Shown: positions 4,342 to 63,270, counted from the first letter of the whole stretch. The stretch is 63,335 nucleotides of DNA, filler included, from Reclinomonas americana ATCC 50394 (GCA_048213135.1; 14 parts of 14 records of this genome joined end to end with filler, not necessarily neighbours in it); one strand, 5' to 3'. The notes: a model not told the origin generated them from the sequence alone. A program made the numbers and translations.

Positions 4342-7300
4342 GAACTCACGCGCCTCTCCTCCGACACCGCCAACGCCATATCCGTGGCCTCGGGGGCCGC
4401 CCAAGCGACCGCCAGCGGCCCCGTTGCACAACTACCGTCACGAGTGGAGGCGCTGGAGCGCATGGTGGTGGATCTGTCGCAGCAGGTGCGAAGCGGACGC
4501 AGCGCCGGCGAGACGGCACTGACCGAGGCCGTGAATCGGGTGACGGCACAAGTGGACGACAAGATGAGGTGTGGGGGCGATACTGAGCAGTGCATGAGTG
4601 ATCCCTTTTCTCACACATCACATAGGGAGGATCGAGACGCCGCCGCGCAGGCCCGCTCCGCTTTGCAGTGCGTCAACTCCCTCCTTCATTAACACCCCTT
4701 CTTCTCACTCCTCACCCTCGTTTCCCTATCAACACCAGGGGCGACATTGCCAACGTGCGCACGGAGATGCAAGCGGCGGAGCAGCGTGTGGCGGCCAAGA
4801 ACACGCGTGCCATGGACAGCATGCGCACCGAGGTCATGGACACCATGCAGCAGCAGTTCAACCAGCTGCGCATCTCGTTTGCCGAGGAACTCGACAATCG
4901 CAGCGCTGCCGTGGACCTCCAACTGCAAGAGGGAGAGGCGCGCCTGTTTGAAAAGTCAAAGGAGGTGTGAGCTGCGGTGGTGATCGTCATGATGATGTGA
5001 GATCTCACACGGCGCTTGCAGGCCTCTGCCGTCAACGACACCTCCATCGAGGCGCTGTTGCTCTTTGGCGAGACATTTGGCATGACACGGGACGATATGC
5101 TTGGCCGTCGCAATGCCACGGCGGAGGTGCGGGGATGCGGGGGAAATGGGGGAAGAGGGAAGGCGGAAGAGGGAAGGGGTCATGCGAGGAAGATATCACG
5201 AGGCAACAAAGCGAGACAAGGAAGGAGCTGTTGGAACATTTCCGTCGCAATGCCACTGCAGAGATGCGGAGATAGGGCGACGGAAAGGGGAGGGAAAGAG
5301 GGAAAGGAATGGGAAAGGGGTGAAGGGAAGAGGGAGGCGGAAGAGATGCAGTACATAGGCAACGCGAGGAAAACATCACGAGGCAACGGGGCGAGATATG
5401 GAAATAGGTGTTGAAACATTTCCGTCGCAATGCCACTGCAGAGGTGCGGAGATAGGGCACGGAAAGGGATGGAAAGAGAGAACTGGAAGGGAAAGGAATG
5501 GGAAAGGGGTGAAGGGAAGAGGGAGGCGGAAGTGGAAAAGGGGTGAAAGGAAGAGGGAGGCGGAAGTGGAAAAGGGGTGAAAGGAAGAGGGAGGCGGAAG
5601 TGGAAAAGGGGTGAAAGGAAGAGGGAGGCGGAAAAGATGCGGCACATAGGCAACGCGAGGAAGGCATCACGAGAAGGAAGGAGATGTTGGTTCTTTTGTT
5701 CCGTACCCTAACTCGTCATTGGTGGTCACACGAGGAGCGGTTCCTGGTGATCGGGTGACGGGTCTTGCGAATTAGGGGTCAAGGGTAAAGGGGTAGGGAG
5801 CAACTATAGAGTCAGATACAAAGGTAGTGAGATGACAAGACGGGTAGAGAAAGGAAAGAGGAGGCGCCCTGCATCCATTCAGCCTGCACAACGCATCTTC
5901 TTCTCTCTGCTGCAAGCAATACTCCTTCGGCTTGTTGTCACCCGTTGCCTTTTGCTTCGAAGCTGTCGCTCCTTCGTATTCTTACTCAGTCTGCTTGAGA
6001 AGTGGAGGAGGAGGGGTTCTCTTTCTCACCGTATGCTGTCTTCTCGCTTCATCCGCATCGCGTTCTTCCTCTTCTCCGTCACGCCCTCTGACAGAGAGGT
6101 GCCGAGGCAGGGAACTTCCGTTCAGTCTACGTGAGAGGAGAAATTCTCTTTCTCGCCTCATGCTGTCTTCGCTTCATCCGTATCTTCCTCCTCCATCACG
6201 CCCTCTGACGGATGGAGGGAAGATACGAAGGGAGTGGCTTGTCTCCTTGCTGACCGTCGCCACAACCCTGCACAGGACAACCTGTCATTTGTGCGCGACC
6301 TGCCCGTGTTTATTGGACTGCGTCAGCAATTAGGTGTGCTGTCTTTCCGCTCTTCTCTCGCCAGATGTTGCTGCTCATGAGCACTGCAGAGGACAAGGTG
6401 GACCGAACGGCAATCAAGTCGTTCAAGAGAAGCGTAACGTTGCGTATGAATCACTGCGTCGAGCTGCGGGCATGCATCTAAAGGAGAGTGTGCCTTGCAG
6501 CGAACTGCAGTCGAGAATGCGCACGCTCGAGGCGCACTTTGAGAGTGAAATGGGTGTCACGGTGGACCTGACAACATCGCATGTTGCGTTTTCTGCTTGA
6601 AAATATCACTCTTATGTGCCTGTTCTTGCTCGCACACTCGTTGACTCGTTCCGACCATGCACGCGCATTTCTCGTATTCACGCTCACCTCGTTCTCTGCA
6701 GGATGACGACGACGAGAGGGGTGCAGAACAGCCACCCAGCGAGGGCGACGTGGAGCGCCTGGATCGCAAGATCACGGATGTGGAAGTGAAGCGGGTGGAG
6801 ATGAAACGACGTTGCGGTAGTTTTGTCCCTCTCTTTTGCTGGTGCAATCGCTCACCAAGGCCGAGCAGAACTCGACCGGTGTCAATCGACTCTTGCCCAG
6901 TTGCAGGAAAGCATCAATAGCAAGGTGCAGTCACTGATTCCCCCCACCTCACTCTATTCCTCCCACCTCCCGTACTCTTTCCGTCAAAGCATCCCACGAG
7001 TTGTTTGAACTGCAAGTATGCAGTTTCTGTGTCTTGTTGTTTCGCGTTGTATGTTCTCACCACGGAGATTAGTAGTACATACTTGTCAGCTCTCCTCCCC
7101 TCCTCTCTTCCTCCACTTACCCTATCCTCTTCAAAGCCATGGATGGAAGATGTGGATCGCGTGACAGAGACCGCGGTGCATGCCGACGTGTTCGAGGCCT
7201 TTGTCAAGGAGCTGCGCGAGGAGGTGGCCGACGACCGGGAACACCGCGATAACGAATCGCATGCGATTTCCGAGATTGTGAAGGAGATTGTCGTGCATGT

Positions 7301-9495
7301 CGACGTGCTGCGGCGGGAGAAGCTCGACAAGCGCGTGTTTGCCGGCATGAAGTTGTTGAGTCATTTGTGGGGGGAAAGGGGACCTTGTGAGTCGTTATCC
7401 TTACTCATGTTGGGAATGACGCAGATTTGGGGACGAGGATGAGGTGGCGTCTGCCGCGCGCTTCCGATGCATCGCTTGTGGTCGCAATGCGCCCACCGGT
7501 GTCGACCTGTTGTTGGTGCGTTGAAGTGGGTGAGCATAGGAGAGAAGGAGAATGCCTGCTGAACGGTGGGTTGTATGCAGGCGAATGAGGGATCGGGTCC
7601 GATTCCGTCAATGCCGCCGGCCACGCTGTCACCGCGAGCGGCGCATGCGGGGTCGCCGAGGAAGCATGCGGGGGGGAAGGGGGTGAGTGGTGGGAGGGGA
7701 AGGGGGAGGGAGGGGGAAGAAGGAGGGGAAGAGAGGATAAGAGGAGGAGGAGACGAACAGAATGTCAATGATCACAATGCGGTGGATCAAGGTGAGTAAG
7801 AGAGCAAGTCCACTTCACAAGCCGATTCGTACTCTCTGCCACTCACTGTCCGTCTGTCTCCAGTTCATTCTCTTCTCTCGTTGAGGGGTGTGAGTAGCTG
7901 CGATCGCTGTTGAGCAGTTTTGTCAGCATGGAGTTGCTCTGTCCGTCTCCTGTTGCTCCCCGTAGTCGAAAACGCATCATACACATCGAAGTGTTTCTAA
8001 TTGGTGAGGAGTTGAGACACAAGAGTCGACAGTACACACAGAGAAGAGAACGGAGAGAGCGTGGAGAAGCAGATCACGGGCACCTTGGCTGCTGTTGGCA
8101 GTTCGTGCTCTGTAAAACTTAGAGACGTTCACACACGTGACCAGTTTGGTAGCGTGTGGTGGATAGAGCGTGAGGGGCGAGAGCTGCCCATATGTTGGCA
8201 TTGGAGGTTTGAGATGAACAGGTTTACATCAAGCAGAGTGGATGCCCATATGTTGGCATTGGAGGTTTGAGATGAACAGGTTTACATCAAGCAGAGTGGA
8301 GAGATGGAGCCAGCAGTACACCTTGAGAGAAAAAGAGACGACGAGCTCATCGCAGGCACAGTTGCAATGGTCGGTAACTTGTACTCAGTGAATATCTGAA
8401 AGGAATTGGTACATGCATTGACCGTCTTGGGTCGTGTGTGCTCGATGCGGAGTGGAGAAGAGGAGGGGTAGGTGGTAAGACAAAATGCGGAGAATGAGAG
8501 GGAGAGAGAGGGAGAGAGAGAGAGAGAGAGCTCGATAAAGAGTGGAGAAGTGACGGACGAGATGCAAGGCAGAAAGACCAAGTGTGTGTGAGAGAGCGCG
8601 AGAGAGATGAATGGCAACAAATAGCTTCACATATGACCTTCACTCTCGCATGGGTGTGGGATTCGTTTTCTACTCCTTCCACTATGACTCTTTCTTTCTC
8701 TGTCTGCTCACTCTCTCTCTCTCTCTCTTTCCTTTTCTCTCGCACTATCCTTCCTTTCCCTTCCTCTCTCTCTCTCTCTCTGCATGCTGACGAGTCAGAG
8801 ATGATCACAACCTTTCTATGCACTCGTCACTGACCCTCATTTCCGCAGACGGAACAACCATTCACTCGCCACCCTCCACACTGGCAGTTGTGCAGCCGGT
8901 GCAACCTGCCACGGGAGCAGTTGGTTCACCAACACGTGTGGAGCAATACTACAAGTGGCTGGAGACAAAGTTGCGCAGCCCAGCTCTTTCTCGTTCTTGA
9001 CTTGTCGCTGACGCATGACACAACACAGTGCACCGGAGCAAGTGTACGCCGGTCCGGATGCCACCAGTGTTCCAGCCACGTGCGTACATTATACCACCTT
9101 CTCATCCTTCTGCGTGACGCCCTCACCTCGCTTTGTGCAGTCACACGGTCGGTCGCGACACCAAACTGTACCGCGTGGCCACCGACAGCACCCCACGTCG
9201 TCGCTCCTCTGATACCGTGGCGGTACCGGCCATTCGGCGCATGCTCGCCGGCAGCAACGCCTCGCAGCTGTACGCGAGAGTGGCGGCAAATGGCACCGCG
9301 GTCATGGAGGGGGGAGAGGGTGGCGAGGGCATGGAGCCTACGCCGCCGCCACCGCCGCCACCGTCGGTGTTTCCGCCGGTGACTGCCGCCGCCGCACGCA
9401 ATGATCCAGGTCCGCCGATTGCGCCACCGCACGCGATGAGCAGTCCTCGCAAGGCGGCGGTGGTGAGGTTGCCGCCGGCGAATGGTGCGTCATGA
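4342..9495 (+). CDS. Multi-exon coiled-coil protein, DUF4795/C16orf96/QRICH2-like (5' end missing)
   Basis: Phase-compatible GT-AG exons give long heptad helices, then EKLDKRVF...ASAARFRCIACGR and a late VGRDTKLYR. These resemble the CxxC and G.DG..Y motifs of that family (recalled, not searched). Confidence 0.6.
5105..5670 (+). repeat. Intronic tandem duplication of an exon 3' end plus donor, with nested approximately 33-bp purine repeats
   Basis: ccgtcgcaatgccac.gc.gag.tgcgg occurs at about 5105, 5242 and 5422. ggaaaaggggtgaaaggaagagggaggcggaagt units lie at about 5500-5635. Confidence 0.8.
8186..8301. repeat. Perfect approximately 58-bp direct tandem duplication (intronic)
   Basis: gcccatatgttggcattggaggtttgagatgaacaggtttacatcaagcagagtgga is present twice. 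Confidence 0.9.
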
Positions 9496-10711: not shown

Positions 10712-10788
<77 letters not shown>

Positions 10789-10998
10789 GAGGGAGGGAGG
10801 AGGAGAGACACAACTAACTAACAACNNNNNNNNNNNNNNNNNNNNNNNNNNNNNNNNNNNNNNNNNNNNTTAATTAATTAANNNNNNNNNNNNNNNNNNN
10901 NNNNNNNNNNNNNNNNNNNNNNNNNAGAGAGAGAGAGAGAGAGGAGATCTGCACTCTATCAACCCCCTTCGCTGTCTCTCTTACTTTTTACTCGCAGT

Positions 10999-11035
<37 letters not shown>

Positions 11036-17803: not shown

Positions 17804-18165
17804 GTCGTGTATCCAGCGATGATTTCCGCAAAGTGCTGGCCGAGTACGGCGTGAAGCGCGGAGTCAATCCAATCGTCCGTCGCTTTGCCGCCGCCGCCGG
17901 GGCGTCTCCCGCCTCCGCCGCAGCGTCGCCGTCTACACAAGTCGATTACACTGCGTTCTTGTCGTACTTTGCCGACGCGAAAAAGTTCTGCAATGGCCAT
18001 GGCGCGCTCTCTCTCTCTGTGCTCTTCTCTCTTGTGTACTGACGTGTGGGTTTGCGTTGTGTAAAAAACAAGGCCGCAACGGACGCCGCCGACGCCGACG
18101 AGTATGATGGCTGCACTGGCGTCGCCGACTTCGTTGAATGCCGAGGTGGGTGTCAATCAAGAGAG

Positions 18166-18214: not shown

Positions 18215-21200
18215 AATGGGAGAGAGCAGTGTGAGGCAGTGTAGAGCAGGGAGTGAGAGAGAGAGAGAGAATGCGTTCGACTTTGGATTGTCACGTTCTG
18301 TCATGTCTGAGATATCGAAGCGCAGCGGACAGTGTGTGTCTGGTGAACGATCGAGTGTGTATGTGTGTGTGTGATAGAGAGCATAGAGAGCGAAGAGTGT
18401 GTATGTGTTTGCGTGAGAGAGACGGTGAACGTTCTTGTGACGCGATGAATCGCGACAATCGTTTTTGTCGCTGAGAGAGACTGTTAGGATGAGCGGTGTC
18501 TTGTGTGGCTGTTGTGTTTGTGTGTACTCGGTTGTTGTCGCCGCGGGGTTGGTGGTGTTTCGTTGTGCTGTCGATATTTCTCCGATTTCTCGGACGCGCG
18601 GCACTCATCAACCGCTGAACTGATTCTCGTCTCGCTCTCTCCGCCCTGTTATCCATCTTGCGCTTTGCCTTGTTCTCCATTATTCGTGCCTCTCGTACCT
18701 CACGTCACCTCTCGACGCGATCCTCCCTCTCGTTCTCCACTTCGCGCTCCCCACCTCTCGCTCTCCACCTCTCCCACCTCGCTCTCCACCTCTCGCTGTC
18801 CACCTCGCTCTCCCCACCTCACTCCCCACCTCTCACTCCCCACCTCACTCCCCACCTCTCACTCCCCACCTCACTCCCCACCTCACTCGCCACCTCGCAC
18901 TCCCCACCTCACTCGCCACCTCGCACTCCCCACCTCGCTCCCACCTCGCTCCCCACCTCGCTCCCCACCTCGCTCCCCACCTCGCTCCCCACCTCGCTCC
19001 CCACCTCGTTCCCCACCTCGTTCCCCACCTCGTTCCCCACCTCGCTCCCCACCTCACTCCCACCTCACTCCCCACCTCACTCCCCACCTCGTACTCCCCA
19101 CCTCGTACTCCCCACCTCGTACTCCCCACCTCATCCTGCTTCACTCCCTTCCCTCCTCTCACTCCTCTCCGTTCCCCTTTCCCCCCATTTTTCCAACTCG
19201 CTCACCTCCCTTCCCCTTCTTCCCCCTTCCCCTTTCCCTTTCCCCCCACATAGACCCCACCCGTCTCCCAGGCCAAGCCCACCGAGATCTCCCACTCCCC
19301 CAACCCGCGCGACATGCGCACATCGGTGGACAGGAAAGCCAATCACCTCCACGGACCTGGCGAGTCATCACTCGCACGCCTGCTGAAAGATCGCGACCGC
19401 GTCGGCAGCACACTCCGTGAGATGGACCGCGAGCGCAAGGGAGTCGTCTCCAAGGCCGACTTTGAGGCTGGTTCGTCGCCGCCCCACACCCACCCTGTGT
19501 TTGTGCCGCTCGCTCACTTTTGCTAATGAACGGCAGGTTTGGAGAGCGCTGGCATTCGAGCCACAGACCCCGAGGTGCAAGCCATGGTGCGTCGCGCCGA
19601 GACCGCCGACGGCAAGGTTGCGTACTCGCAGCTGCTGTCGATTCTGCCAGACGCCACCACCATTACCACCCCGTCGGCCGAGTCGTCATCGCACGCCAGC
19701 CTGATGGCCACCACAGCCGCCAATCAGTTTGTGCCCGCCGCCGCCCAGAACGCCGCCTCGCGCCGCAAGTCGGTGCCGGAGACCATGGATATGCGCCAGA
19801 ACTCCACGCCGCTCAATCCGGTGACGCAGAAGCGCATGGCCAAGTTGGATCGCGCGATGCAGCTCTTTTCGAGCTCCGATCCGCTCAACACGGGTGTCGT
19901 GCCGGCCGATGACTTTGTCAGCAGTTGCGTGGGTGGGAGATATGTAGTGCAGGGCGAGTGCGAATGTGTTGCGCCTCTCTCTCTCTCTCTCATTCTCTCC
20001 CTCTTTCTCTCTCTCTGTTCCTTTCTGTTGTCATTTTCTGTCATTTCAATTCCAGTTACCCGCACGCTGTCACTCGTTTCCCGCTGTATCTCGGTCTTCT
20101 TTCTCGCTCTCTCTCTCTTTTGCCTGACGTACTTGTTGTCACTCATCTTGCACGTTGATTTTCACGCTCTTTCGCACTCCTTGTCTTTTTCTTCCATCCC
20201 TCATGTCTCCCCACATTTCTGTTTCGTCGTAACTTTCTTCTCTCCCCCTCTCCTCTTACTCCCGTCCCGTGTATCTCACTCTCTTCCCTCATTACATCCC
20301 TTTCCACTTCCGTTTCCCTTCTCCACTGCCATTGCGCCCTTTCCCTTCTCCCTTCTCCCTCACCTTCGCTTACCCTTTTGCAGCCCTCCGCACCATCAAC
20401 CCCACCGTCGGACCCAAGGAGGTGGAGCACCTCGTCAACCGCCTCAGCGATCCCGCCACCCGCACCGTCGACTACCGCAAGTTCCTGCAAGTGGCCAGCG
20501 CCCTCGAGAGCAAATTTGTCAGCGATCCCTCCTCACCCAGCGCTGGTGGCGCCGTGACCGACGACAGTGACGTTGCGTCCATCGCGCGACTCTCTTGTAC
20601 CTTACTCCACAACTCACCTTTCGCGTCTTTGTCTCTCACAGCAACGACTTGCGTTTGGTGTCTCATCCCCTCTGGCTGCCACCCGTCAGGAGCGCGCCGA
20701 GATGCTGCACACATCGGAGGTGTTTGACTCGAGTGCGGTGAGTGGCTGCGAATTTAGTTTGCGAGGCTGGCTGCTGTAGCTCACCACTTGCACTGCAGCC
20801 GCCACCATCATCGCCGGCCGGCAAGCGCTTCGTCAGGGAAAACGTCAACGTTGCTCCCAAGTTTGACGAGCAGAAGCGCCGTGATGTGGTGACCTGGGAC
20901 CGCTCCAAGGCTCTGACTCCGGAGGAGAAGCGATTGGAGGAGCTGCACAAGACCATTCGTGATAAGGTGTGTGCGGTGGGCCACGGTGGATATGAGATGG
21001 GGAGGTGGTGGGCTTGCTGGTAGATTTTCCTTCATGCACTGTCTCCTTCACTTCACCACCTTGTTCACATTTGTGACTTGGCTTGACGCGCGCACGCTCG
21101 TATTTCTTGTGCGATAGTTACACCGCATGCGTACTTCCTGTGTCATGGTTGCTGACTCGCGCAAGCGCTCGCTATTCAATTCTCTTAGCCACGTTGTGCG

Positions 21201-24200
21201 TGTCCTCCACACTGTGTTCCCTTCACGTCGTTGTGCCATGACGCGCGCACGCACGTTGTTTGACTTCTTTCTCTTCTTCACTGTCTCGGTGTGCGTGTCC
21301 TCTACTCTCCATTTCCTTATCGTCGTTGTGCCATGACTCAATTCCCTTCTCGTTCACTCTCATGGTGCATTGTTTTTCTGTACATCGTCTTTGCATTCGC
21401 TGTTGTGGTATCGTCGTTGTCGTGTGCATGGAGATACGCGCGCATGCGTGCGTATCTCAATTGTCTTGTCCAGCTTCGCATTATTCTCTCCTCCCTTCAC
21501 CTCTCTTCCCCTTTCCCTCCCCCTCACCCTTCCCTCTCCCTCACCCTTCCCCCTTCCCCCTTCCCCCTTCTCACCCTTCCCCATTTCGTAGGTGTACGGC
21601 CGCTCGTCCAACCTCGTCCAAGTCTTCCGCCAATTCGACCTTGACGGCAACGGCACGGTCGACCGCGACGAGCTCCGCAACGGCCTCTTTGGCCTGGGCC
21701 TGCAGCTCAACGGTCCCGATTTCGACCGCCTCTACCGCTCCTTTGACAAGGACGGCAGCGGCGAGATTGACTACCAGGAGTTCGCGACGGCCGTGGGCAT
21801 GGGGTGCGTCGAGTTTCCCTCTCTGTTTTCTTGTGTTTTTTCACGCGCTCACACTCTCTTCGCTAACAGCCCGCCTCCACCACCCACCGAGTACGACCTG
21901 TCGGAGCGCCGCGAGTTCACTGGCGGCATCAAGGGCGGTGTCGACGTGAAGATGGATCGCGACAAATCCGACATCTTTTTCGAGGGCGACGTGTCGAAGA
22001 AGGAGGAGGAGCGCATGCGCACCTCGGTCAAGGTCAATTACTACAAGAACAAGACCTCGGACGAGGTCAACCTCAGCCACAATCCGGAGGTGCAGGAGGA
22101 GATGGAGTTCCGCTTCCTCCGCGAGCAGATCATGGACAAGGCCGAGCGCAAGACCGAGCGCATTCGCGACCTGTTCTTGGAGTTTGACGAGAATGGCGAC
22201 GGTGTCATTTCGTACGACGAGTTCCGCCAGGGTCTGCGCAAGCTGGGTGTCAACGCCAAGCCCGTGCAGGTGGAGAAGCTGATTCAGTTGGCCGACGCCG
22301 ACGGCAATGGCGACATTGATTACGCCGAGTTTGTTGACGTGATGCGCTTTGACAAGATGTTGCGTTGCGGGGCAAGAGTGGGAAAGGGTGTTTTGATAAC
22401 TGTGCAATGACAGACAGAGTGCAGAAGTGAGCAGCAGCAGATAGGGAGAGAGAAGTACCAGGGGGGTCTGTGTAGCAAGAGGGCGTGCAAAGCGGGCGAG
22501 AGGCAGAGAGATGTGCTGTGAACCTTTCTCAGCCTTCGAAACCATGAGTGTTTCTTCTTTCAGAAGTTGCATGTGACCTGCGGAGCAAGAGAAAGATGGA
22601 GAATGTGAGTTGCTCCGCCTTGGAAACGATGAGTGGTTCTGTGTTGTGACTAGAGTGCACATGCGAGTGAGAAAGGGATGTACCATGCGCCTTTCCCCAC
22701 TTCGGAACCTCTGTAGTTTCTTTGAAGAAGTGATGGGGAGAGCTGCGAGACTCCTGTCGCCGAAGATGTGCATTCTTTTGACTCGTGGAAGTGAGGGCAA
22801 GCTCAGTGATAATGTCTGTTGTTTGTTGAATGCATGCCACTGTGTTGCCGCTGCTTGATCACTTCCCGTCATATTCCTTTGCTCTTTCCTTCCTCCCCGT
22901 CCTCAATCCTCTTTCCCTTACACCTGCCTCCCAGCCTTTTGGCATCTCTTTTGCTTCTCTCCCCTTGTATCTTCTGTCGCTGTCTCTCGCCCCCTTCCCC
23001 TTCTTCTTACCCTTCCCCTTCCCTCCCTTATCTCCCTTCTCCTTATTCAGTGTGGCCGAGGACCCATTCGCCCAAGCCGCGATGAAGCGCAAGACCGTGC
23101 GCCGCCGCAAGGTCGACTACCCCGGCAACAAGTGCCTCGGTATTCCGACCGACGTGCTGAACCAGCACCCCGAGTACGAGCGCCGTGACTACGAGTTTGC
23201 CTCGTCGCAAGGCGTGTACCAGCTGGTGCCGCTGGTGAAGAAGGGCACTGGACCGACGATTGTCGGACCCGACACGATGACCACCACCGACCGCAAGGAT
23301 TTGCTGCTGCGCCGCAAGATCACTGTTGCGTGGCATGACAATGATGATGTTGTGGTTGTTGTAATGACTGTTGTAACACTCACACTGTTTTTTTCCCCAA
23401 CAACAGGAGAAACTGTGGGGCCGTGACGACCGCCTGCGCGACATGTTCCAGCGCTTTGACAAGCGTGGCGAGGGTCACATTACGTACCCCGAGTTCCGCG
23501 ACGGCCTCAACTCTCTGGGCGTGGAGCTCACGATTCCCGAGTTTGAGCGCCTGGTCACCTACATTGACGCCGACAAGTCGGGCACGATCGAGTACAGCGA
23601 GTTTGTCACTCTGGTGCGCCCCGCCGGCGGCGACGACGCGCCCGGCTCGCCCGTGCGCGTGCCCGACCACCTCAAGTCGTCGCTGAGTGGCGCGGCTGGA
23701 GCGGTGGCTGACGACGCGGGACCGCGACGAAAGATGACGCGCCAGGATCTGATGCTGAAGCGCCGCATTGCCGATCGCATTACGCAGAAGACGGCCGACA
23801 TTCGCCGCGTGTTCCAGCAGTTTGACACGGACGGCAATGGCAGCTTGGATCTCGACGAGTTCCGCAGTGGACTGGAGAGTTTGGGTGCGTGAATTGGAGA
23901 GGGGACGGGAAGAGAGGGCAAGGGAAGAGAGAGGNNNNNNNNNNNNNNNNNNNNNNNNNNNNNNNNNNNNNNNNNNNNTTAATTAATTAANNNNNNNNNN
24001 NNNNNNNNNNNNNNNNNNNNNNNNNNNNNNNNNNAGTTTCTCCTTTCTGCCATTTCTCCACTCTGCGTCCTCTCCACTCTGCGTCCTCTCTCTTTGTTCT
24101 CACAACGCCGTTTTCTTTGCATTCTGCATACTCCTCACTCTGTGTTTTCTCGACTCTTGTTTCTCCACTCTCCGTTCTCTCCACTCTCTGTTCTCTCCAT

Positions 24201-25803
24201 GCTTATGTTGTCTCCACTCTGTTTTTCCATTCTGTCTCTCTCCACTCTGCGTTCTCTTCCCTACGCTTATCCTTCTCCTCTTACCCCCCTCTCCCTTCCC
24301 TTCCCCTTCTCGGTAGGTCTGGCCTTCTCCGACACCGACTTCGGCCAAATCGTGCAAATCTTTGACGAAGACGGCTCCGGCAACATCACCTACGACGAGT
24401 TCGCCGACCTCATCACCCACGACGACTCGGACCTGTCGGGCCGCGACAAGACGGTGCGACGACAGCAGCCGTCGTCGGCGCTCTTTTTCGAGTCCAAGGA
24501 GGAGCGTCGCGACCGCGAGGTCCGCAAGGCGCTGCAGGGCAAATTCGAGACCAAGGTCACCACCGTCAGCAACATGTTCCGCGAGTGGGACGAGAACGGC
24601 GACGGTGTCGTCAACCGCGAGGAGTTCCGCTCCGGCGTCCAGCGCCTCGGCATCCAACTGACCGACGAGGAGATTGATCGTGTCATTCGCGCGTGCGATG
24701 TCGACGGCAATGGCACGATTGATTTGCCCGAGTTTGCCAAGTATTTCACGGAGAATGCCGACGTGCCGGTGCAGGCGCAGATTGCGGCCGAGGATGTGGC
24801 CGCACAGCAGCGCGCCATTCCGCGCCAGCTGCAGTCGCACTTTGGCAGTGGCTCGCTCGGCTCTGGCGTGCCGGTGTTTGAGGAGGAGAAGACGGCTTCG
24901 CGCAAGGGACGCGGTGCGGCCAATGCCGCCGGTGTCACCGACTCGCCCAGCAGCTCGGGCCAGCAGACACCTGCTGAGCCGGCGGAGGAGGTGGTGAATG
25001 TGTCGGCCGACGGCACCCCGCGCCGCAGCTCTCCGGGCTCATCTCCACGTCGCAACTCGCCGGGTGACTCGCCCGACTCACAGTCGTCGCTGCGAGAGCG
25101 CCGCTTGGCGGCACTGGCTCAGCTGACGCTGGACGCGGAGCCGGCGGGACCACCGTTGCGTGCATCAATCCCACTTCCCTTTATCTCAATTCCAACTTTG
25201 GTTGCTCATGTACGATGGTTGCGTTCCACAGAGTTCCGTTTGCGTTGGACCCGACCGCGTCGGTGGCCGCCGCCTCGGACCCAGTAGCCAAGGTGCTGAA
25301 GGGCGAGTTGGTGGAGGTCACGGAGAACCGACCGGCCAAGATCCGCGAGGCCTTCCGTGCCATGGACAAGGCGCACTCAGGTCTGCTCGGCGAGGCCGAA
25401 TTCCGTCAGGCGCTGACCAGCTGCGGAGTGCGAGCTCCCGACTGGGTCATGGACCGCGCTGTGGCACTGTCCGACGTCGGCCAAGGCAACCACGACTACG
25501 ACCGCTTCCTCAAGTCGCTCGGCTTCGAGCTGATTCGCGACGAGAAGCAGTTCTTCTCGGGCCTGCGCGATCTGCGACGCAGCATCCCCTCGAACGAGGA
25601 GGGCGGCTACTTTGAGGAGGCCTCACCGCGTACGACCGCGCGCACTCCACGTGGAGCGAGCCCGCGCTACCGCTCCAACCCGCTGGACAGCGGCAACATT
25701 ATCGGCCACACGGACGAGGTTCGCTCATGTGATTTCCCGCGAGCGCGCAAGGGTCATCCGCAGTATGATCCGACTCCGTCGCCGTTGCACAAGACGCACC
25801 CGG
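17804..25803 (+). CDS. Very large multi-EF-hand calcium-binding protein (both ends incomplete)
   Basis: Canonical loops include DLDGNGTVDRDE, DKDGSGEIDYQE, DENGDGVISYDE, DADGNGDIDYAE, DADKSGTIEYSE, DTDGNGSLDLDE, DEDGSGNITYDE and DVDGNGTIDLPE. Exons join in phase, including across the gap at 23935. Confidence 0.9.
18745..19135. repeat. 12-bp minisatellite (ctccccacctcR) in an intron
   Basis: Roughly 30 variant copies are visible. Confidence 0.9.
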
Positions 25804-26837: not shown

Positions 26838-27969
26838 AACGTGGGCTCCATCAACCGCGGCGAAGAGACCGCCCCCGACCGCCACTTGCGCGCCGGCGCC
26901 CGCGCTCTCGGCATGCCCTTTGTTCGCTTCATCCCCACTCATCGTTGCGCGCCTTGCGTTCTTCTTCTTCTCTCCCCCATCCTTTGATAACTATTTGCTG
27001 AGCTCCACTCTCCCCACCCAGCCGCGTACTTTGGCAACGCGATACTCACCCGCCTCCCCGTTCTCAAGTTCGCCTGGACCCACATTCCCGAGGTCGCCGT
27101 GCCACCGACCTCGTCGTACGCCGACTATGGCGATCGCTCAGTGGCCGCCGTGCGCGTGCTGCTCGGCGACGGGCACGTGGTGAACGTGGTGTCGACGCAC
27201 TTGGATCACCGCACCGAGGACATTCGAGTGGGCCAGATGCGTTTCGTGAGCGAGTGGATGCGCGAGTTTGCGGCGGCGCCCAACGACGACGGCTCGTTGG
27301 TGGGGGTGAACGCTCCGTGCTTGGTGGTGGGCGACTTGAACTCGCTGCGTCGTGCCGACTATGACGAGGAGCAATGGGCGCTCGTCAGGCGTGGTCGCAA
27401 GAAAGCAGTGATTGAGCCGGCGCGCTTCGAGGTGGTGCAGCTGATGGAGGAGGAGATGCAGTGGGTGGACTGTGCTCGCGTCGTGGCGCCGTGTGTGGGG
27501 GAGGTGAGGAGAATGAGAGGGGGAGAGAGATCATAGAAGGTGCTGCTTGTGCGACCTGCTGCTCTAGGGAAACAGAAGCTGACTTGCTGAGTGCGACGGT
27601 TGTGGTGTTGATGTGATGTTGATGATGCAGGCACGCTCGTGGGAGACAGTGGCGAGTCCGCCGTGGCCACAGTTGCGTCCGTGGGCGACTGTCAGCCCGC
27701 CGGGCAATTTCTTCTTCAACGTGGCCACCTGCTGGGTTGGCACGCGCGTTGATTACGTGTTTGTGACACCCGACTGGAGCCTGCCGGTGGTGTCGTGCGC
27801 GCCGGCCGACAATCGCAGCGCGGATCACTTGCCACTCATTGCGGAGTTTGCGGTGCCGGAGGGCGGTGAAGCCGTGATGGCAGTAGCAGCACCACAAGCA
27901 GTGGAAGCAGAGGAAGTGGCGGTACCACAACAGGGTCGTTTACAAGAGGAAAATCCTCACGTTGTCTAG
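26838..27969 (+). CDS. EEP family protein (5' truncated)
   Basis: Spliced motifs YFGNAILTRLP, STHLDH, VVGDLN, RVDYVF and ADHLPL. Confidence 0.88.
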
Positions 27970-48212: not shown

Positions 48213-48599
48213 CTGCAACCAACTTGCTGTGTGAGTTTGCTGCGCAATGAACACCAAGCAAGGGCGCACGCGCACAAAGAGACAGAGAGAGCGAAAGTGA
48301 GAAGGGAAAGGGAATGAGTGAATGGGCGTGAGACTGACGAGAGGGAGTGCTGTCTCTCAATATGTACATGTGTGTGTGTGTGTGTAGTGTGTGTGGTGAG
48401 TGATGGCAGCAAGTGAATCAGCGAGTGAGCCAGTGAGCACGACAGGAAGTAAGCCATTGAATGAGTGTATCTCTCAAGGTGTGTATGTGTGTCTATGCAT
48501 GCCTCTCTCTCACACACACACACTATTCTCTTTCATTCTCATGTGCACTGCACTGTCTTTCACGCACTCACTCATTCGCTTAATAGATGGCGAAACGCC

Positions 48600-52220: not shown

Positions 52221-52822
52221 TCAGAAGTAGGCGATCTCGTCGTCAGCACTGCGGCGTGAGAGAGTGAGTGAGCACGAGAAGGGAAGGTGAGGGATGAATG
52301 AGGAGATCTCCACGCAACGACTTGCCAGCCTGCAGCGAGTGCAGCGAGTGCGCACCGCCGAAATCGCGGAACACGCGCAGGTGCACGTGATCGGCGCCAG
52401 TGTTCACCTTGATGAAGAACTGCGTGCCAGAGAATGTGAGTGCCGAGAACGAAAACGGAGAGAAGCAACGTGTCAGCACAAAACGTTGGTGCCAGCGACC
52501 TGCGAAAAGCACAAGGTAAGATATGAGACGACAAATGAATGCAGAGGCACGTGGCGGGTAAGAAGCGAACCACTTGCGACGTGTACGAGACCGGCTCGTA
52601 CTTCTCGAAAGCGTGGCCAGCCTGGGCCTCAGCCTGTGGGGTGCGGGAAGAGGGGAAAATGAGAAAAGGAGGTGGGGAAGGAAGGGAGAAAGGGTAAAGG
52701 AGGAAGACAAGGAGACGGACAACGGGCAAGTGAGTTGCAACACACCTCGTGGCGCACTGCCTCCGCGGCCGCACGAGCGGCATCATCAATGGGCTTGGCC
52801 TCGCTAACTCCTCCGGCGCGCT
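52221..52822 (-). CDS. Type 1 cystatin (stefin-like cysteine protease inhibitor); start exon uncertain
   Basis: Spliced RAGGVSEAKP...YTSQV|VAGTN|FFIKV...HVHLRVF...GKS|ADDEIAYF*, containing the QVVAG motif. Confidence 0.9.
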
Positions 52823-53929: not shown

Positions 53930-54010
53930 CGCGACCTGAAGGATTCGAACCTTCGCGTGTTGCCACAACGCCTTAGCAGGGCGCCGCCTTAACCACTCGG
54001 CCAAAGCCGC
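53930..54010 (-). tRNA. tRNA-Ser(GCT)
   Basis: Cloverleaf with GCGGCTT/AGGTCGC acceptor stem, anticodon loop CT-GCT-AA, long variable arm, GGTTCGAATCC T-arm and discriminator G. A TTTTT Pol III terminator lies at 53920-53924. Confidence 0.95.
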
Positions 54011-54195
54011 TGTTACGACTCACTNNNNNNNNNNNNNNNNNNNNNNNNNNNNNNNNNNNNNNNNNNNNTTAATTAATTAANNNNNNNNNNNNNNNNNNNN
54101 NNNNNNNNNNNNNNNNNNNNNNNNAAAGGGAGTCCCTTTCACCAAATTGTCCCAGCGGTCGGTCACTCGCGCACACAGACAGAGAGAGTGCGAGG

Positions 54196-57100
54196 ATGCT
54201 CTCGCTGTCTGTGGGCTTTCTGGAGACACTGGCCACTGGCCGCAGCATTGAGCGATTCCCTCCCAATGTCTATGCAGAGGTCTCTTGTCTCACGCACACA
54301 GAGTGAATATGCAACTCGTGTTTGCTCACACACACACAGGTTCGCAAGATCATTCCACTGCGTGCGCTGCTCGCTGGTCAAGGCGACTTGCTGTTGCGTG
54401 TTGCGTTTTGCTTGCACTTTTCCCTTGCTTTCGACTCTCACTTTCATGTGATTGATTGACAAGTCGCGGCTATCGGTATGCACTGGAGTTGACTGACCAG
54501 GCGCATTCGGTGCGAGTGCTGTTGCATCCGTCGCTGTCGAGTGTGGTTGAAGAGGGGCGACTCAGTGCCGGTGGATCTGTGCGACTGGAGGGCATCAATC
54601 GCACGTATGAGCTCAGTGGGCGACCGGTGACCGTGGTCACGCGCATGCATGTGGAACGCAGTGCGGCCGAGGCGACACCGTCGACAGAGATCTCACGACC
54701 ACGTGGTGGAGGGCGCGGTGCAGCATCGCAGCCGGTGTATGTGCCAAACAAGGCACTGGATGAGTTCCTCGATGGGCGCAGCGTCGCTGCCGAGAAGGCC
54801 GAGTTGTCGGATATTTTGTTTCCCTTTTCGTCCTCCTCCTCGTCGATGGCGTTGTCGTCCAAGGCCTCTGCAGCGGCACTATCACAAGCGCGGTGGGTGT
54901 CTTTGTTCCCGCTGTCCGCAGCGAGTGATGCTGAGCAGGGTTTGTTGCACAGGCCGGCAACGGCGGCGCATTTTGAATTGGTTCGTGCTCCTGCGGGCGA
55001 GCCAGCGCGATTGTTGCACGAGGAGGCACAGGCGGCGCGTCCTGCATCTGTTGCCGCGGCCATGACCACCGGTGGTGGCTCATCGCCTCGTCGTTGGGCC
55101 GAGCCGGGTCCGATGAAGTTGCCGCTGGCAGTCGCCAGCTCCATGGGTGCGTTCCTCATTGTTTGGTCTTCCCCGTCTTCAGAAACTGATGTGGTGGCGC
55201 AATCAGATACTGCGGTGCCACCATGGCGAGGTGGTGCACCGAGCGGCGTGACTGCTGCCGATCCGAGTTTGCGACGTGTGCAGTCGGATCGCGTGAGGAG
55301 CGAGTCGGTGCCGCCACCGCAGTCGCGCGAAGACAGCGACGACGGTGGCGCGGCGATGAATCGACTCCTCGCCAATGCCACGCCGCGGACTCGCAAGCGG
55401 TGGGATCAGCGAGCGACTGTGCGCGAGTTCCCAGTGCTGCAGCCTGTGGACATGAGCGAGCCAGCGGGCGGCAGCCTTGCTGTTCCCGACGAGAAACGAG
55501 CACCCAGTCCGGGATTGCAGGCCGACAGCGTGGCATTCCTGTTTGCACAAGGTCCGTTGGGGGATGCTTGCTGTGCTCCTTTTTCCTCATCACTGATGCT
55601 GCGCATGCAGCCCCTCCATCGCCGCGAGATCCCACTGCCAGTGTGATTGTGGCGGCTGGCGAGAGCGACGCCGACGACGATGGTGAGTGGAGCATTGCGA
55701 GTGACCAGGAATCGGCGGCGACTCCGGCGGGGGGCGCCAGTGTCGGTGGGTGAAGTGATTGCTCGTGCTCGTCCTGAAGCTCGTCTGTTCACATGATGCC
55801 AGGAACAGCGAGCTCAGCCACGGCCACGGCCACCACGACAGCCACCACCATCACCTCTACTGCTGCTGCTGGTGCACCATCAGTCGCACCACAATCCATT
55901 GCTGTGTCGACTCCACCGCCATTCTTGCCGCCTTTTGCACTGCCTGTGTCGGAATACGTATCCTCACCATCGAACGCTTCGGGTACGTCTTCTTTTCCAA
56001 CACCAGCAGTCCGTGTGTATTCCCTCTGCTGACAGCACCACAGGTGACGCATTCCCTGTCGTCTACGCCAGTGCGAACGGATCCAAGAGACCACACAGTG
56101 CCGGCACCAACGCCGCCCAGCACGCCAGGATGACGACCAACACCGCCGCCGCCGCGCGCAAGAGTGTCCGCGACGAACAGGAGGCTGCCGGCCAACCGCT
56201 GTCGGCCCGATCGCGGCGACTCATTGCAGAGTCGAGCGACAGCGAATCGGGCAAGTCGGGGAGTGCGAGCGCTCGCGGGCGCTTCACTCGCACACCGCGT
56301 GGATGGAGTGCCGAGCCGGAAGCCGGTGGCGCAGTGTTGCCGCCGAAGAAGCAAGTGCAGCAGTGGGAGAACACGCTGCGTGACAAGCGCACTGATTTGC
56401 GCGGCACACCGCTGCACATCAAGGAGGATCCGTTGCGTGTGGGCAAGCAGGATGAGGGGAGCCCTCCGTGGGACAAGTCGCAGGCAGAGCCGCCGGCACG
56501 CGTGCCCGGCTCACCCACACCGTCGAGCCCGCTCAGTGCGCGCAAGAGACCAGGAAGCGGTCGTACACCGGAAAAACAACAACAACAACAACGACAGGAG
56601 CAGCAGCGTGGGCCTAGTGCTCACCCAGATCAACAGCCGGGGCCGACAGCACCGACTGCAGCGCGGTCGTTGATGTACCAGGAGAACTCGGAGCCGCTGT
56701 TTACCGCTCACGAGGCTTTCAGCGTGCCACTGAGCATGCGCACGCAAATGTGGACTACGTCGCTGCGCGATCAGGATCTGCCGTCGTCGGCGTCGGCGGG
56801 TGCCACCGGCAGCTCCATGTCGCCGCGCATGAAGGGCACGTCACCGCCCCAGGCTGCAGCAGCTCCAGGCGCAGCACGTCCTGCTGTGCGTGCAACCGGT
56901 GTCACAAAGGGCTCACCGCCACCGCCGCCCACTGTCACCTCGCCGTCGTCGGCCACAAGTCCACCACCACCAGACGATGGAGTGCCCAGGTCGTCCAACC
57001 GCGCGCGTGCGCAATGGGATCGACCGGTGACGCCAGCCGTGCTGGAGCCGACGGAGAGCGTCAACAGCATGCGTGTGCCGCGACTCATGGAGGCGCCGAC

Positions 57101-59116: not shown

Positions 59117-60020
59117 TCAGCACTTGTCGTCTGCGCACCGGCGGGGTGGGATGAGTGAGTTACCAGCTGCGCAAACAGTGAACAGCGTGCAGCACGCACC
59201 ATGGAAGTCCCAGCGAGTCAGCTTGGGCGACCGATCGTAGCCGACCATGCTGACATATCTCGCGTCATCGGCCGGCCCCACCTTGCATCGCACGTGAGCA
59301 GAAGAGAAAAAAGAGACAAGGTGCAGAGGAGGAGGAGGAGGAGGAAGACCTTCTCTGTGGCCGACGAGAGCATGCTCTGCAGCGAGATGCACACCGAGGC
59401 CACTGTCAACACCGGACTCCACTCGTCGTACAGTGTCGACAGGCAAATGTGTCCATTCGAGTACACATGTGGCTGCGCAACACAAAAGAAGAAGAGTAAG
59501 GCTCTCTGGGTGGGAAGAGAGAGAGCACATATGTGAGTGTGTGTGCGCAACGTGTCGCGGTGGACTGCCCACAAACACCACCTCCGGACTGTCGACTGCA
59601 CAAGAGAGAAGAGAGAGTGAGAGTCTCATCCCTCTTGTCTCTCTTTCTCTCACCACACACTCACCCGGGTATTGATCACTGAAGCGGAAACGAACTCTGT
59701 GCGTGTAAGAAGAGTGTGAGTTGAGAGAGGAAGAGGAGGGAGTTGAGGAGAGACAGAGAGAGAGAGAGAATGAGTGCACAAGCGAACCTGAATGTTTCGT
59801 CCTCATACAGACTACCTGGTGCGCCGTGGATCCACACGTAGGCCTCGTCGGAGCGACCAGCAGGCACTGCCGACTGTGTGTGCATGTGAGTGACTGTGGG
59901 AGAGAGTGACACAAAGAGGCACACACACACACACACCTCGTCAATCTCAATGCCCTCTGGTGGCGACGAGCGCAGCTTGCCCAGCTCCTTCTCCAGTCTT
60001 CGATGCTTGAGGCCGCTCAT
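59117..60020 (-). CDS. UBE2W: Ubiquitin-conjugating enzyme E2 W
   Basis: RRLEKEL..., YP.DSPEVVF..., HPHVYSNGHICLSTLYDEWSPVLTVASVCISLQSMLSS..., TRWDFHDDKC*. Confidence 0.92.
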
Positions 60021-60126
60021 TCCGCTCTCTCGTTCCTCTTTTACGTGAGTTGTGGACGCACAGATGCAGGACGAAACTAGATTTTTGGTTTAATTATGAG
60101 AGAGTTCTCCTTCCTCGCTGCGCTGC

Positions 60127-61817
60127 TCATCGCCGAGGACCACCGACAGCTCGTGGCGGTGCCTTCGCTAATGGTGCCACAGTGGAGGAGAGTGGCACAA
60201 GGAGATCGGGATCGGCGGCGCCACCGCCGGCGGTGACGCCGAGAGACGCGTGACTGCCGACCATGCCGGTCACTGTCGGCACTGTGAATCCGCTGGTGGC
60301 GGTGGTGGTGGTGTGAGGCGTGCGCGGGAAGATGTCGTCGTAGTCGTCGTCGTCGCCGTTGTCGGTGTCGAGGTCCGAGTCCTCGTGCATGAGCCGTTGC
60401 TTTAGTGCCGTCGGCTGCGATTGCGGGAGCATGCCGAGGTGTGGCGTAGGGGCCACTGTCGAGTCCAGCGACACAATCGTCGACGACGAGGAGCGCTTCT
60501 CGCGCGACATGGCCGGCGGGTGCGAGATGCGCATGGTTGTGGGGTAGTCGTCGAGCTCGGCGGCCACCGACGCGTCTTGCCGGAAAAAGTCTACGGCATT
60601 GCCGATAGCGAACGCGTGGTAGGTGCCGCTGTCTGGTCGCAGCATGCGGCGGCGGTGCAGCAGCATCACCACAAACACCGTGAGATTGGTCAGCCCCAGC
60701 GTCTGCAAAAAAACGGGAGTGAGTGACAACACAATGGAGAGAGAGCGAACACAACTTGCACACCTCCATCATGAGATACGTGGGATCGTGAGGCCAGGCG
60801 GCACCAAACAGCTCCGCCATGAACGCCACGCTAAACACGGAGCAGCACACGCATCCGGCAACGGAGATTACCAGCGCCTGTCATCACCACCGCCACCATC
60901 AGCAACAAGTGATTGGACAGCGGACATAGAAGAGAGAGTACCTTGCGAATGGCCGTGCGCAGATGCGCGCTGGCATTTGAGTAGGCATTGGCGCGTTGCA
61001 CGAGATGCAACAACAGCGGCGTCAACACCAACAGCAGGAAGAACATCAAGTTCGACACAAAGAAGCAGCCGGCGACGGCTTGCGAGAGCGTCGGGCACAC
61101 GGGATTGTTGGCAATGGCATCGATTGTGTTGCAGGTGGTTCCGTGCACGGCAATGATTACGACCAGCGCCACAAACAGCAACACCTGAATGCACATCATC
61201 ACGCCCACCGAGGCCGCCAGGAAGCTGCGCAGATTGCACGGACGCCATCGATTCGAGATCACCGACGTCAACACAAGGTACCAGTACACCGACACTGATG
61301 TCACAATGACACTGTCACATGCTTGCATGAGTGAACGAGTGAGTGAGTGAGACCCTCCTCTGCAGGCAGACGAAACGCGAGACAGGCATTGGCCAGCGCG
61401 ACCACGGCCACATCGGCGGCAAGTGGTGCGTCAATCGGCAACCACAGGTACACAAAGATGACCACAGACTCCACACAGCAGCCGAAACGCAGCACTTGAA
61501 TGAGCCAGAAGATGAGCTTTTGCCGCACACTTGCACTGTGTGTGTGTGTGTGTGCAAATGATGAGTGAATCTCTCACTCTTTCTCTCTTCTCTGTGTGTG
61601 TGTGATGATGATGCACTCACCGGCGCCCGGGCACGTAAAACAGATGGAAAGCTAATGAGGCGGCAGCTAATATCATGGCCGCTAGTGTGGAGATGCTAAT
61701 GACCACACATTGTGCTTGCTGTGAATAGTGTGTGTGTGTGCGTGAGAGAGAGAGAGAGAGCACACACACACGCGTGTTCTTTTCACTGAGAGACGCAACT
61801 GGGAAGCCGACACACAT
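60127..61817 (-). CDS. Multipass (about 7 TM) membrane protein with hydrophilic C-terminal tail
   Basis: Successive hydrophobic segments over several exons, followed by an acidic/Ser-Thr tail. Confidence 0.6.
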
Positions 61818-61999
61818 GCTGGCTGCAGCGCCCCACCGGCCTCCACTCACACTCACACTTATCGATAGTGAGATTGTGACTCACTTGTAAAAACTTCACT
61901 CATTTGGCTCATTGTTGCAACGGGGGATAACGAAAGAAAGGAGAGAGGGGGGGGGGGGTGGAGGGGGGATAGCGTTGGGGATCGCTTGCGCGATGGTTC

Positions 62000-63270
62000 T
62001 TACTTGCCGACACCGGCGGCGGAGGCGGCAGCGCCGGCCACTGTGCTGGGTTCGATCTGCGGGAAGGAGGGTGGGTGTGAGGAGTTGCCAAGATCGGGTG
62101 GAGAATGCACAAAAAAGGAGAGTAACCTCGGCGTACACCGAGGCGATCTCGTCGGCGTAGCGGCGGGCGAGCACTGGGCGTTTGATCTTCATCCTGTATA
62201 TGCGTAGTATTGGCGTGTCATGAATCACATAGACAGGGTAAGGAGCGGCAGGGGAACGAAACGTGGGTGTGCAGGCGTCATTGTCCACTGCGAAACGACA
62301 CGGACGGGGCAAGTCAGTGCGGTGCACGAAACAGCACCGGGAGGGGAGGAGAAACGAAGGGTACAAACCAGTCCACGGCTCCTGCTCGACGATAATGGCC
62401 GCCGGAATCTCAAAGCTGGTGAACTGCGCGACGAGCACGGGTGTTACAAGAGGTGCCACACACACACACAGCAAGAGATGCGTGCACTTGATATGACGTG
62501 CCTTCTCCGCCTTCGCAATGGTCCTGATCTGCTCGTGGATCTCAGCCGACAGCTGGTCACGCTTGTCCGACGCCACCACCGCTTGCAAAATGGTCTGTCA
62601 CGGATCGACAGTGAGCATGCAGCGGAAAGCGGCACGAAGGAAGGGAGAAGTGGCTCACCTCGGTGCCGCGCTTCTCAATGCCGTGATGAGCGGCCCAGGC
62701 CGTCACCGCGACTGCAGGAAAGAGAGATGAGACGACGCCATCAGAACGTAAAAGACAATGGATCACGTACTCTCGTCGGGCACGACAACGGCGATCAGCT
62801 GTGAAACGCAGCGGAAATCTGTGAGCGACGCAGAGGGAAATAAAAGGCATGGCAAGCAAGGCAACGAAACCTTGGTGCGCAGGCCGTCGCCTGCAACAAA
62901 GAAGCCAAGACAACAAGAGTCAGTCTCCAGCACTCCCTCTTAGCACATGAGAAAGAAAGCGCACCGTACACAAAGATCTGGCCGACCAGAGTGGCCGCGG
63001 AGAACGCGCCCTCCAGCTTCTCGGGACTGTCAACACATAACGCGTGAGGGACTCCAGAAACCACCTCCAGGCAGCTCGACACGTAGAGAGACGCAACGCA
63101 ATGTACTCGCCGAGTGCCGTCTTGAAGAGAGCTGCACAGCGAGTACAGGGTGTGAGAGAAACACATGAACGACAATCGATCCTGCACAGAAAACGCAACA
63201 CTTGGCACGGTCGACAATCGAGAAAGTGCCGTTCGGGTTGCGGCGACCAATGTCACCGGTGCGGAACCAC
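62000..63270 (-). CDS. Long-chain acyl-CoA synthetase, C-terminal part
   Basis: WFRTGDIG...IVDRAKSLFKTALGEYIAPEKLE...TPTMKIKR. Confidence 0.92.

Follow-up and report, generated by a model that had tools for sequence, protein, structure and literature searches.

A frequent GTTGCG class of 5′ splice sites after non-G exon ends, possibly read one base out of register, in a stretch of Reclinomonas americana DNA

How is a 5′ splice site (donor) recognised when the exon before it does not end in G? The question is raised by a stretch of 63,335 bases (~56% G+C) from Reclinomonas americana ATCC 50394 (GCA_048213135.1), here called the window, in which a preliminary description had listed 22 introns that begin with GTTGCG. 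All 22 coordinates carry the word, and at position -1, the final base of the exon, G is, as claimed, never found (C 9, T 7, A 6). At +7 these sites have T in 17 cases, C in 4 and G in 1, which resembles +6 of normal donors. GTTGCGY (Y = C or T) thus looks like the common G|GTGCGY donor with the cut (|) shifted by one base, such that G and Y stand at +6/+7 instead of +5/+6, and the same offset is seen in donors of the form GTTTCGT and GTTTTGT. The evidence below shows that donors of this class exist, are frequent, avoid G at -1 and follow the one-base offset pattern; that U1 is their reader, and in which register it acts, we infer.

The firmest case comes from a UBE2W-like gene on the minus strand. 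When the exon that follows 59551 was used as a query, it retrieved P0001, an open reading frame (ORF) of 154 amino acids that is 100% identical; to judge by its source name, it was called as an ORF on one nucleotide record. Since an ORF caller reads contiguous sequence, this record probably represents a spliced transcript. Every residue of P0001 (154/154) can be placed on the minus strand via six GT-AG introns, including that at 59551, all of which are removed from the mature transcript that P0001 represents. Each of the four threading solutions contains the intron at 59551; they differ only by spurious extra introns at the last residue. Intron 4 (59473..59551, 79 nucleotides, nt) has the donor cac|GTTGCGCA and ends in GCGCAG followed by cca, and cac|GTTGCG...CAG|cca is the sole junction yielding P0001, with the cut at GU. 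The junction separates H82 from P83 within an invariant HPHVYSNGHICL block that is gap-free across 8 homologues. The threading and this block together bear out the proposal that a conserved PRH|PHVY motif pins the site, and at the level of a transcript-type public record the donor status of 59551 is proven.

The other five introns of this gene (within 59131..59936, minus strand) serve as comparators. Their donors, gag|GTGTGTGT at 59936, cag|GTTCGCTT at 59787, cgg|GTGAGTGT at 59664, aag|GTCTTCCT at 59349 and atg|GTGCGTGC at 59199, read GTGTGT, GTTCGC, GTGAGT, GTCTTC and GTGCGT, and each is preceded by G. The intron at 59282-59349 ends in AAG and not in YAG (GATGCAAG|gtg), an acceptor that is itself pinned by P0001. 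We also found 80 metagenome loci related to the UBE2W protein, with best segments 38-70% identical and no close relative among them; these were not used.

Two further GTTGCG donors, 52318 and 63199, are supported by structure-database alignments. The last intron of a stefin (cystatin) gene (52249..52318, minus strand, 70 nt) has the donor gtc|GTTGCGTG. The exon ending at 52318 aligns without gaps to cystatin-A2 (8gqq_A, 99 residues; E=1.2e-6) over residues 54-90, and the exon that follows the 70-nt intron encodes exactly the nine residues missing from this alignment, plus a stop, so that the stefin gene does pin this donor as had been suggested. The spliced chain is free of internal stops. Searches with the stefin exon at longer lengths for transcript-derived proteins found none. 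An upstream intron of the same checked chain (52420..52484) has the related donor aac|GTTTTGTG (C|GTTTTGT). Between this intron and one that begins G|GTTCGCT lies a micro-exon of 15 nt (52485-52499, minus strand) encoding VAGTN, which we take to be the middle of the cystatin QVVAG loop.

The acyl-CoA synthetase gene, also on the minus strand, contains two GTTGCG introns. The first (63132..63199, 68 nt; donor agt|GTTGCGTT) follows an exon whose ORF is similar to fatty-acyl-CoA synthase up to ...DRAK, where the similarity stops at the donor (E=0.02), and it is consistent with the spliced chain. The second (63027..63097, 71 nt; donor tgc|GTTGCGTC) lies in a stop-free chain of 11 exons that runs to a TAA, and its junction reads GEYIA|PEK, presumably the acyl-CoA synthetase motif. 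The claim that an EYIA|PEK motif pins 63097 therefore stands in part: the chain agrees with it, but is itself based in part on the presumed motif GEYIAPEK, and frames alone allow several acceptors per intron (six in this case). The third exon gave no match when compared with PDB. Two wider GTTNNGY donors occur in the same chain, cac|GTTTCGTT (C|GTTTCGT; 62194..62262) and aag|GTTTCGTT (62799..62870), the latter being the one GTTNNGY donor found after G. The gene also contains a GC-AG intron (62424-62501, aag|GCACGTCA) that is required for an open, collinear chain.

A third group of donors is supported by our own reading of stop-free spliced chains, which makes 6439, 6583, 6811, 37022 and 63097 probable donors. 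In a subtilase gene on the minus strand, the listed intron (36966..37022, 57 nt; donor tct|GTTGCGTT) is joined by one that had not been listed (36808..36873, 66 nt; gat|GTTGCGCC, T|GTTGCGC). Further donors in the checked chain, within 36093..36768, are cag|GTTTACAA at 36768, aga|GTACGTGT at 36595, cag|GTCTGCAG at 36460, cgt|GTGCGTAT at 36218 and ttg|GTGCGTTG at 36093. Three exons match the Peptidase_S8 profile in order (positions 107-162, 168-224 and 224-250), and two ordinary introns are therefore fixed in the gene that also holds 37022 and 36873. In an orphan coiled-coil-like gene on the plus strand, putative introns lie at 6439..6500 (62 nt; aac|GTTGCGTA), 6583..6701 (119 nt; cat|GTTGCGTT) and 6811..6868 (58 nt, or 55 nt if an in-frame GAG is the acceptor; gac|GTTGCGGT), all in a stop-free chain. 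An exon of this gene had 0 hits among 1.84 billion representative proteins.

Together these chains provide a curated set of 31 donors from five genes (UBE2W 6, subtilase segment 7, stefin 4, acyl-CoA synthetase C-terminus 10, orphan coiled-coil gene 4). The sequence was read by eye and the spliced chains were then checked by script (all GT/GC..AG, no internal stops); within the set only the UBE2W chain is proven. Automatic approaches were less useful. Self-trained Viterbi gene finders, either donor-blind or with a two-class donor model, were noisy from weak codon bias and were excluded from the counts. Enumeration of frame-compatible GT/GC..AG pairs returned many alternatives, so that donors are not pinned by frames. 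A rule-based branch/acceptor module overlooked known introns, and signal-only scans had low sensitivity; from the latter we kept a single result, which is given below. A pooled alignment of 12 unrelated exon peptides, searched for transcript-derived proteins, gave 1338 candidates and none with E<=10. Pfam searches were run on stop-to-stop ORFs.

In the curated set GTTGCG accounts for 9 of the 31 donors (29%), which bears out, within this window, the claim of a frequent second donor class. G occupies -1 in none of these 9, compared with 17 of the 22 other donors (Fisher p=9.9e-5), and the contrast persists when the orphan gene is excluded (0/6 vs 16/21; p=0.0016). When donors are grouped by form, a non-G base precedes 11 of 12 GTTNNGY donors but only 3 of 19 in the normal register (p=8.8e-5). 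The five other curated donors after a non-G base are A|GTACGT (twice), T|GTGCGT, C|GTTTTGT and C|GTTTCGT. The two classes also differ in the intron half: donors after G are degenerate (GTGTGT, GTTCGC, GTCTTC, GTTTAC, GTTACT, GTCTGC and others), whereas those after non-G are drawn from a few fixed words (GTTGCGY, GTACGT, GTGCGT, GTTTCGT and GTTTTGT). The -1 rule is therefore real in this window, as a strong tendency with named exceptions. Indeed, it had been described as not absolute, and the exceptions cited for it survive, two of them with a small correction of coordinate: besides A|GTACGT and T|GTGCGT in the curated set, unshifted donors follow non-G exon ends at 4668 (A|GTGCGTC) and at 9080 rather than 9079 (C|GTGCGTA), and the G|GTTTCGT exception is real and lies at 62870 rather than 62871. 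Related GTTNNG donors after non-G were likewise confirmed at 52484 and 62262 (given before as 52485 and 62263), whereas for that proposed near 17975 no GT in a GTTNNG context lies within 4 nt.

It is the placement of GTTGCG, and not its frequency, that carries the signal. As a word it is not enriched: it occurs 60 times on both strands of the window, compared with 49.4 +/- 7.5 in shuffles, of which 9 in 100 have at least as many. However, a scan that ignored the donor motif found GTTGCG to be the most enriched GT-hexamer upstream of branch-plus-AG modules (9/59; p=0.003). The bases preceding the other 38 occurrences are T in 13, C in 11, G in 8 and A in 6. Since G before GTTGCG is rare everywhere, its absence from the 22 claimed sites is only modestly unlikely by this comparison (hypergeometric P=0.019), and the contrast at -1 is much stronger against other donors than against non-donor GTTGCG sites. 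A crude automatic intron test was passed by 11 of the 22 claimed sites and by 7 of the 38 unclaimed ones (p=0.018); this test missed introns that we take as real (52318 and 63097), and tabulating its outcome against -1 G gave no information (p=1.0). At 19617 (plus strand) G|GTTGCGT occurs in frame within an apparent exon and intron signals are absent downstream; therefore the word alone is insufficient for a donor. Conversely, GTTGCG sites that look like donors but had not been listed were found at 39008, 13096, 38448 and 11773, in addition to 36873.

What kind of introns are these? Those of the five curated chains are all GT/GC..AG, with the one GC-AG intron at 62501, which fits the major (U2-type) GT-AG class. 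All 16 of the GTTGCG introns examined end in CAG, and by eye CTCAC or CTGAC lies ~15-25 nt before the CAG in most introns. The branch-like motif is mostly CTCAC and less often CTGAC or CTAAC (for example in 36710-36768, 52249-52318 and 63132-63199, minus strand), and in 62799-62870 an AG directly after it is skipped. Minor (U12-type) introns have a 5′ splice site of the /RTATCCTT type; we reject this class, as the donors here read GTTGCGY. Introns derived from transposons (introners) were also rejected, given that the 16 introns show no similarity along their length (mean column identity 27%). Only GTTGCG and CAG are common to them, and the motif is therefore a signal and not a repeat family.

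The preliminary description had put forward shifted U1 pairing, or a dedicated variant U1/U6, and this is plausible. We favour, with a probability of about one half, a model in which the introns are of the ordinary GT-AG kind and a second type of 5′ splice site, H|GUUGCGY or, in its broader form, H|GUUNNGY (H = A, C or U), is frequent and is recognised in a shifted or bulged register. The usual G|GUGCGY or G|GUNNGY signal would lie one nucleotide away from its normal position with respect to the cut. A frame of seven bases, G-N-U-N-N-G-Y, would be read by the recognition machinery, initially by U1 and perhaps afterwards by U6. When the exon ends in G, the -1 G would occupy the first slot and the cut would fall after it; after an exon with a final A, C or U, that slot would be taken by the +1 G of the intron. 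In the shifted case the +3 U would stand in place of the +2 U, and +6 G and +7 Y in place of +5 G and +6 Y, and the cut would be made at the single GU, which is one base further upstream in the frame. Such a displacement could reflect a shift of the register or, to the same effect, the looping out of one U. After an exon ending in G, the pairs at G(-1), G(+1) and U(+2) might suffice, such that the remainder of the donor drifts and a conserved GTTGCG is not maintained. Degenerate donors after G, fixed words after non-G and the +6/+7 offset are as this model predicts. Its pairing was computed with the human U1 5′ end printed in PMC4856993, which may differ from the U1 of this organism. With it, 20 GTTGCG donors form a mean of 6.4 pairs when the register is shifted by +1, compared with 4.2 without the shift, and for normal donors the order is reversed.

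Several observations weigh against this model. In any register, the best duplex of the 20 GTTGCG donors with canonical U1 has a mean of only -0.84 kcal/mol (range -3.8 to +0.7), compared with means of -6.1 kcal/mol for normal donors after G and -3.8 kcal/mol after non-G. H|GUGCGU should pair at least as well as a shifted H|GUUGCGU, yet only 3 of the 14 curated non-G ends carry a normal-register donor. Given these near-zero duplexes and the rarity of H|GTGCGT, a shift on ordinary U1 is not clearly enough by itself. A pure shift also predicts that the -1 base of the class should resemble the A-rich -2 of normal donors, which it does not (A 6, C 9, T 7), and the GTTNNGY donor at 62870 is preceded by G. 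A bulge fits the letters, GU-U-GCGU against GUGCGU, but the -1 G that should help it is found at 0 of 22 sites. Finally, most of the 31 curated donors come from our own reading of the sequence, with transcript evidence for one GTTGCG junction.

These difficulties make a variant U1 a serious rival. U1, or a second variant U1, might have a non-canonical 5′ end that is the straight complement of GUUGCGU (for example ...ACGCAAC...). It would pair perfectly with H|GUUGCGY and, with one bulged U1 base, with G|GUGCGY, while G|GUUGCGY would be avoided as too tight. We consider this possible, although less probable than a displaced register on an ordinary U1. It would account for a GTTGCG that varies at none of its six positions among the 22 claimed sites yet hardly pairs with canonical U1. 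At +3, 17 of the 31 curated donors have U and only 3 have A, which is odd for canonical position 6; GTAAGT occurs 13 times in the window, compared with 118 for GTGAGT; and CAGGTAAGT-like words (<=1 mismatch to the canonical U1 complement) number 2, against 7.9 expected, with 100 of 100 shuffles having at least 2. The exact complement ACGCA gives -9.0 and -7.3 kcal/mol with GTT-type and normal donors, respectively. When 1280 alternative 5′ ends are compared, the canonical one comes 1229th with GTT-type donors and 662nd with normal donors, but the scan favours any GC-rich sequence and so proves little. Such a 5′ end would moreover be mismatched by the GTTTTGT and GTTTCGT donors, the A|GTACGT donors fit canonical U1, and to our knowledge the U1 5′ end (ACUUACCUG in its canonical form) is almost invariant across eukaryotes. 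The window itself offers no U1-like sequence of either kind: a scan with Rfam found one tRNA only and no snRNA (small nuclear RNA) gene at gathering or E<=1 thresholds, and a word scan found no U1-like 5′ end word, canonical or complementary to GUUGCGU. Variant U1 genes do exist in humans, according to PMC3561869 and PMC10870369, and a second reading head of this kind could define a second donor class. A spliceosome re-tuned in this lineage, whether through its U1 or through a second U1 beside the canonical one, is in our view a little more doubtful still. If it were true, two donor classes would coexist, the last exon base would decide which of them a gene can use, and a U1 gene beginning ...ACGCAAC(C)UG is predicted.

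Compensation between exonic and intronic 5′ splice-site positions is known, as is a dependence of intron positions on -1 in other eukaryotes, and GUUGCGY might be strong through a protein, U6 or U5 instead of U1 pairing, with no change of register at all. The curated set agrees with this in that a base other than G at -1 is accompanied by a strong, fixed intron half and a G by degenerate ones. However, the strong half is not the best complement of canonical U1 and is offset by one base; compensation leaves G and Y at +6/+7 instead of +5/+6 unexplained and names no reader for the motif, and we regard it as unlikely. It might also be argued that most GTTGCG sites are not donors, that nearby GT or GC sites are the real ones and that the pattern is a product of reading frames by eye. 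In seven cases the frames permit 11 to 101 candidate donors, and in the acyl-CoA synthetase gene several acceptors per intron; the donor-blind gene finders gave noisy output, three of the claimed sites are doubtful, and the crude test recovered only half of the claimed sites. This view is, nevertheless, contradicted for 59551 by the transcript-type record and for 52318 and 63199 by the structure-database alignments. A single 6-mer lies at the frame switch of 9 of the 31 curated introns, where 1 in 256 would be expected at +3..+6, and far fewer of the unclaimed sites passed the same test. We therefore consider it very improbable.

Displaced registers have precedents. Shifted and bulged 5′ splice-site registers are established for human U1 (PMC4856993 and PMC9311317). 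At the shifted-register sites of mammals (Roca and Krainer 2009, as described in these papers) the cut is made at GU, the U1 helix is displaced by one position and the +1 G takes the partner of the -1 G; an example oligonucleotide in Table 2 of PMC4856993 has a non-G base at -1. In humans, by the same accounts, this is a rare atypical class with long downstream complementarity, whereas here it forms ~29% of curated donors, with a GC-rich GUUGCGY, little pairing to canonical U1 and a near-absolute -1 rule. The class is also like the bulge +2/+3 registers (Roca 2012; Tan 2016, PMC4856993), with GU, an extra U and normal downstream pairs, and here the letters fit bulge and shift equally; for human, only 68 sites are predicted for +2/+3 and 51 for +3 (Tan 2016, PMC4856993). 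Unlike what the bulge model predicts, -1 G is absent from GTTGCG donors. At the STAT3 tandem donors (PMC11162779) flexibility of the U1/U6 register similarly decides which GU is cut, but those are alternative splicing of a single gene and not a constitutive, genome-wide class. Among the papers listed in searches on unusual donors and U1 in protists, or by the motif letters, none reports this donor class; most subscription papers and supplements lay outside these searches.

Whereas non-canonical registers of human U1 are rare exceptions found gene by gene, here a donor class offset by one base is apparently constitutive, in ~3 of every 10 introns of the checked genes, and a simple rule ties the offset donor to the last exon base. 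If this holds genome-wide, it would provide a natural system for asking what sets the point of cleavage under a displaced U1 helix, and whether the 5′ end of U1 can co-evolve with splice sites. In such genomes, a large share of the genes would be mis-annotated by gene-finding programs that were trained on donors of the GTRNGT type.

The remaining claimed sites are of varying quality, and the statement that all 22 introns restore the frame is accordingly upheld in part: 59551 is proven and others are graded as supported or plausible, whereas 22359, 28711 and 61799 are doubtful or beyond a frame test. We consider 8970, 19924, 20572, 23325, 25155, 26944, 35228, 42447, 54393 and 39405 to be plausible donors, though frames alone do not pin them. 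The putative intron at 23325..23406 (plus strand, 82 nt; act|GTTGCGTG) is flanked by 165 open codons upstream and 161 downstream; EF-hand Pfam matches are found in the downstream exon and at 21592-22407, with none in the adjacent upstream ORF (22830-23423), and the frames permit 11 candidate donors. That at 25155..25231 (plus strand, 77 nt; acc|GTTGCGTG) lies between EF-hand exons of 372 and 210 open codons with Pfam matches, and its donor is not unique by frames. At 42385..42447 (minus strand, 63 nt; agc|GTTGCGTG; 254 and 121 open codons) just 3 GT candidates fit the frame, and the ORFs of the region have no Pfam family match. A putative intron at 30297..30361 (minus strand, 65 nt; tca|GTTGCGTT) lies in an EGF-repeat gene: its flanking exon ends, translated by eye and not as a spliced chain, have an EGF-like cysteine pattern on both sides, and EGF Pfam matches occur along the gene.

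For four further putative introns we relied on signals only: 20572..20641 (plus strand, 70 nt; gac|GTTGCGTC), 8970..9028 (plus strand, 59 nt; aaa|GTTGCGCA), 35165..35228 (minus strand, 64 nt; aca|GTTGCGTG) and 26944..27021 (plus strand, 78 nt; atc|GTTGCGCG). For the claimed donor at 19924..19930 (plus strand; gca|GTTGCGTG) the acceptor is not fixed and would lie ~130-137 nt downstream. At 54393..54406 (plus strand; gct|GTTGCGTG) a second GTTGCGT follows 7 nt downstream and the acceptor is ambiguous, and at 39399..39405 (minus strand; tca|GTTGCGCT) no acceptor was found within 140 nt. A GH18 gene had been cited as a pin for this class, but minus-strand ORFs at 37.5-43.5 kb gave no GH18 Pfam match. 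The sequence downstream of both 22359..22365 (plus strand) and 28705..28711 (minus strand) is purine-rich, and neither has a pyrimidine tract with YAG within 140 nt; at the former, reading through leads to a stop after 17 codons, and for the latter no acceptor was found. The site at 61793..61799 (minus strand) lies in an untranslated context ~200 nt past the acyl-CoA synthetase stop (62002-62000), where frame restoration cannot be judged. Tandem copies of donor words, 5-7 nt apart (GTTGCGTGTTGCGT, GTTGCGTTGCG), occur at 54393-54406 (plus strand), 22359-22369 (plus strand) and 58425-58437 (minus strand); these could be alternative out-of-frame donors.

The window is interrupted by 13 linkers (for example 3855-3954, 10826-10925, 45365-45464 and 54025-54124) of the form N44-TTAATTAATTAA-N44, which have stops in all six frames, and annotation truncates any gene that crosses one. 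Microsatellites such as (CA)n or (CT)n flank many of them, and a tRNA-Ser gene (anticodon GCT; 53930-54010, minus strand) immediately adjoins a linker. Two genes, at 402-3436 (plus strand) and 44204-48356 (minus strand), have long exons of highly regular WD40 repeats, with as many as 7 repeat matches in one exon (E as low as 1e-78) and far fewer introns than their neighbours.

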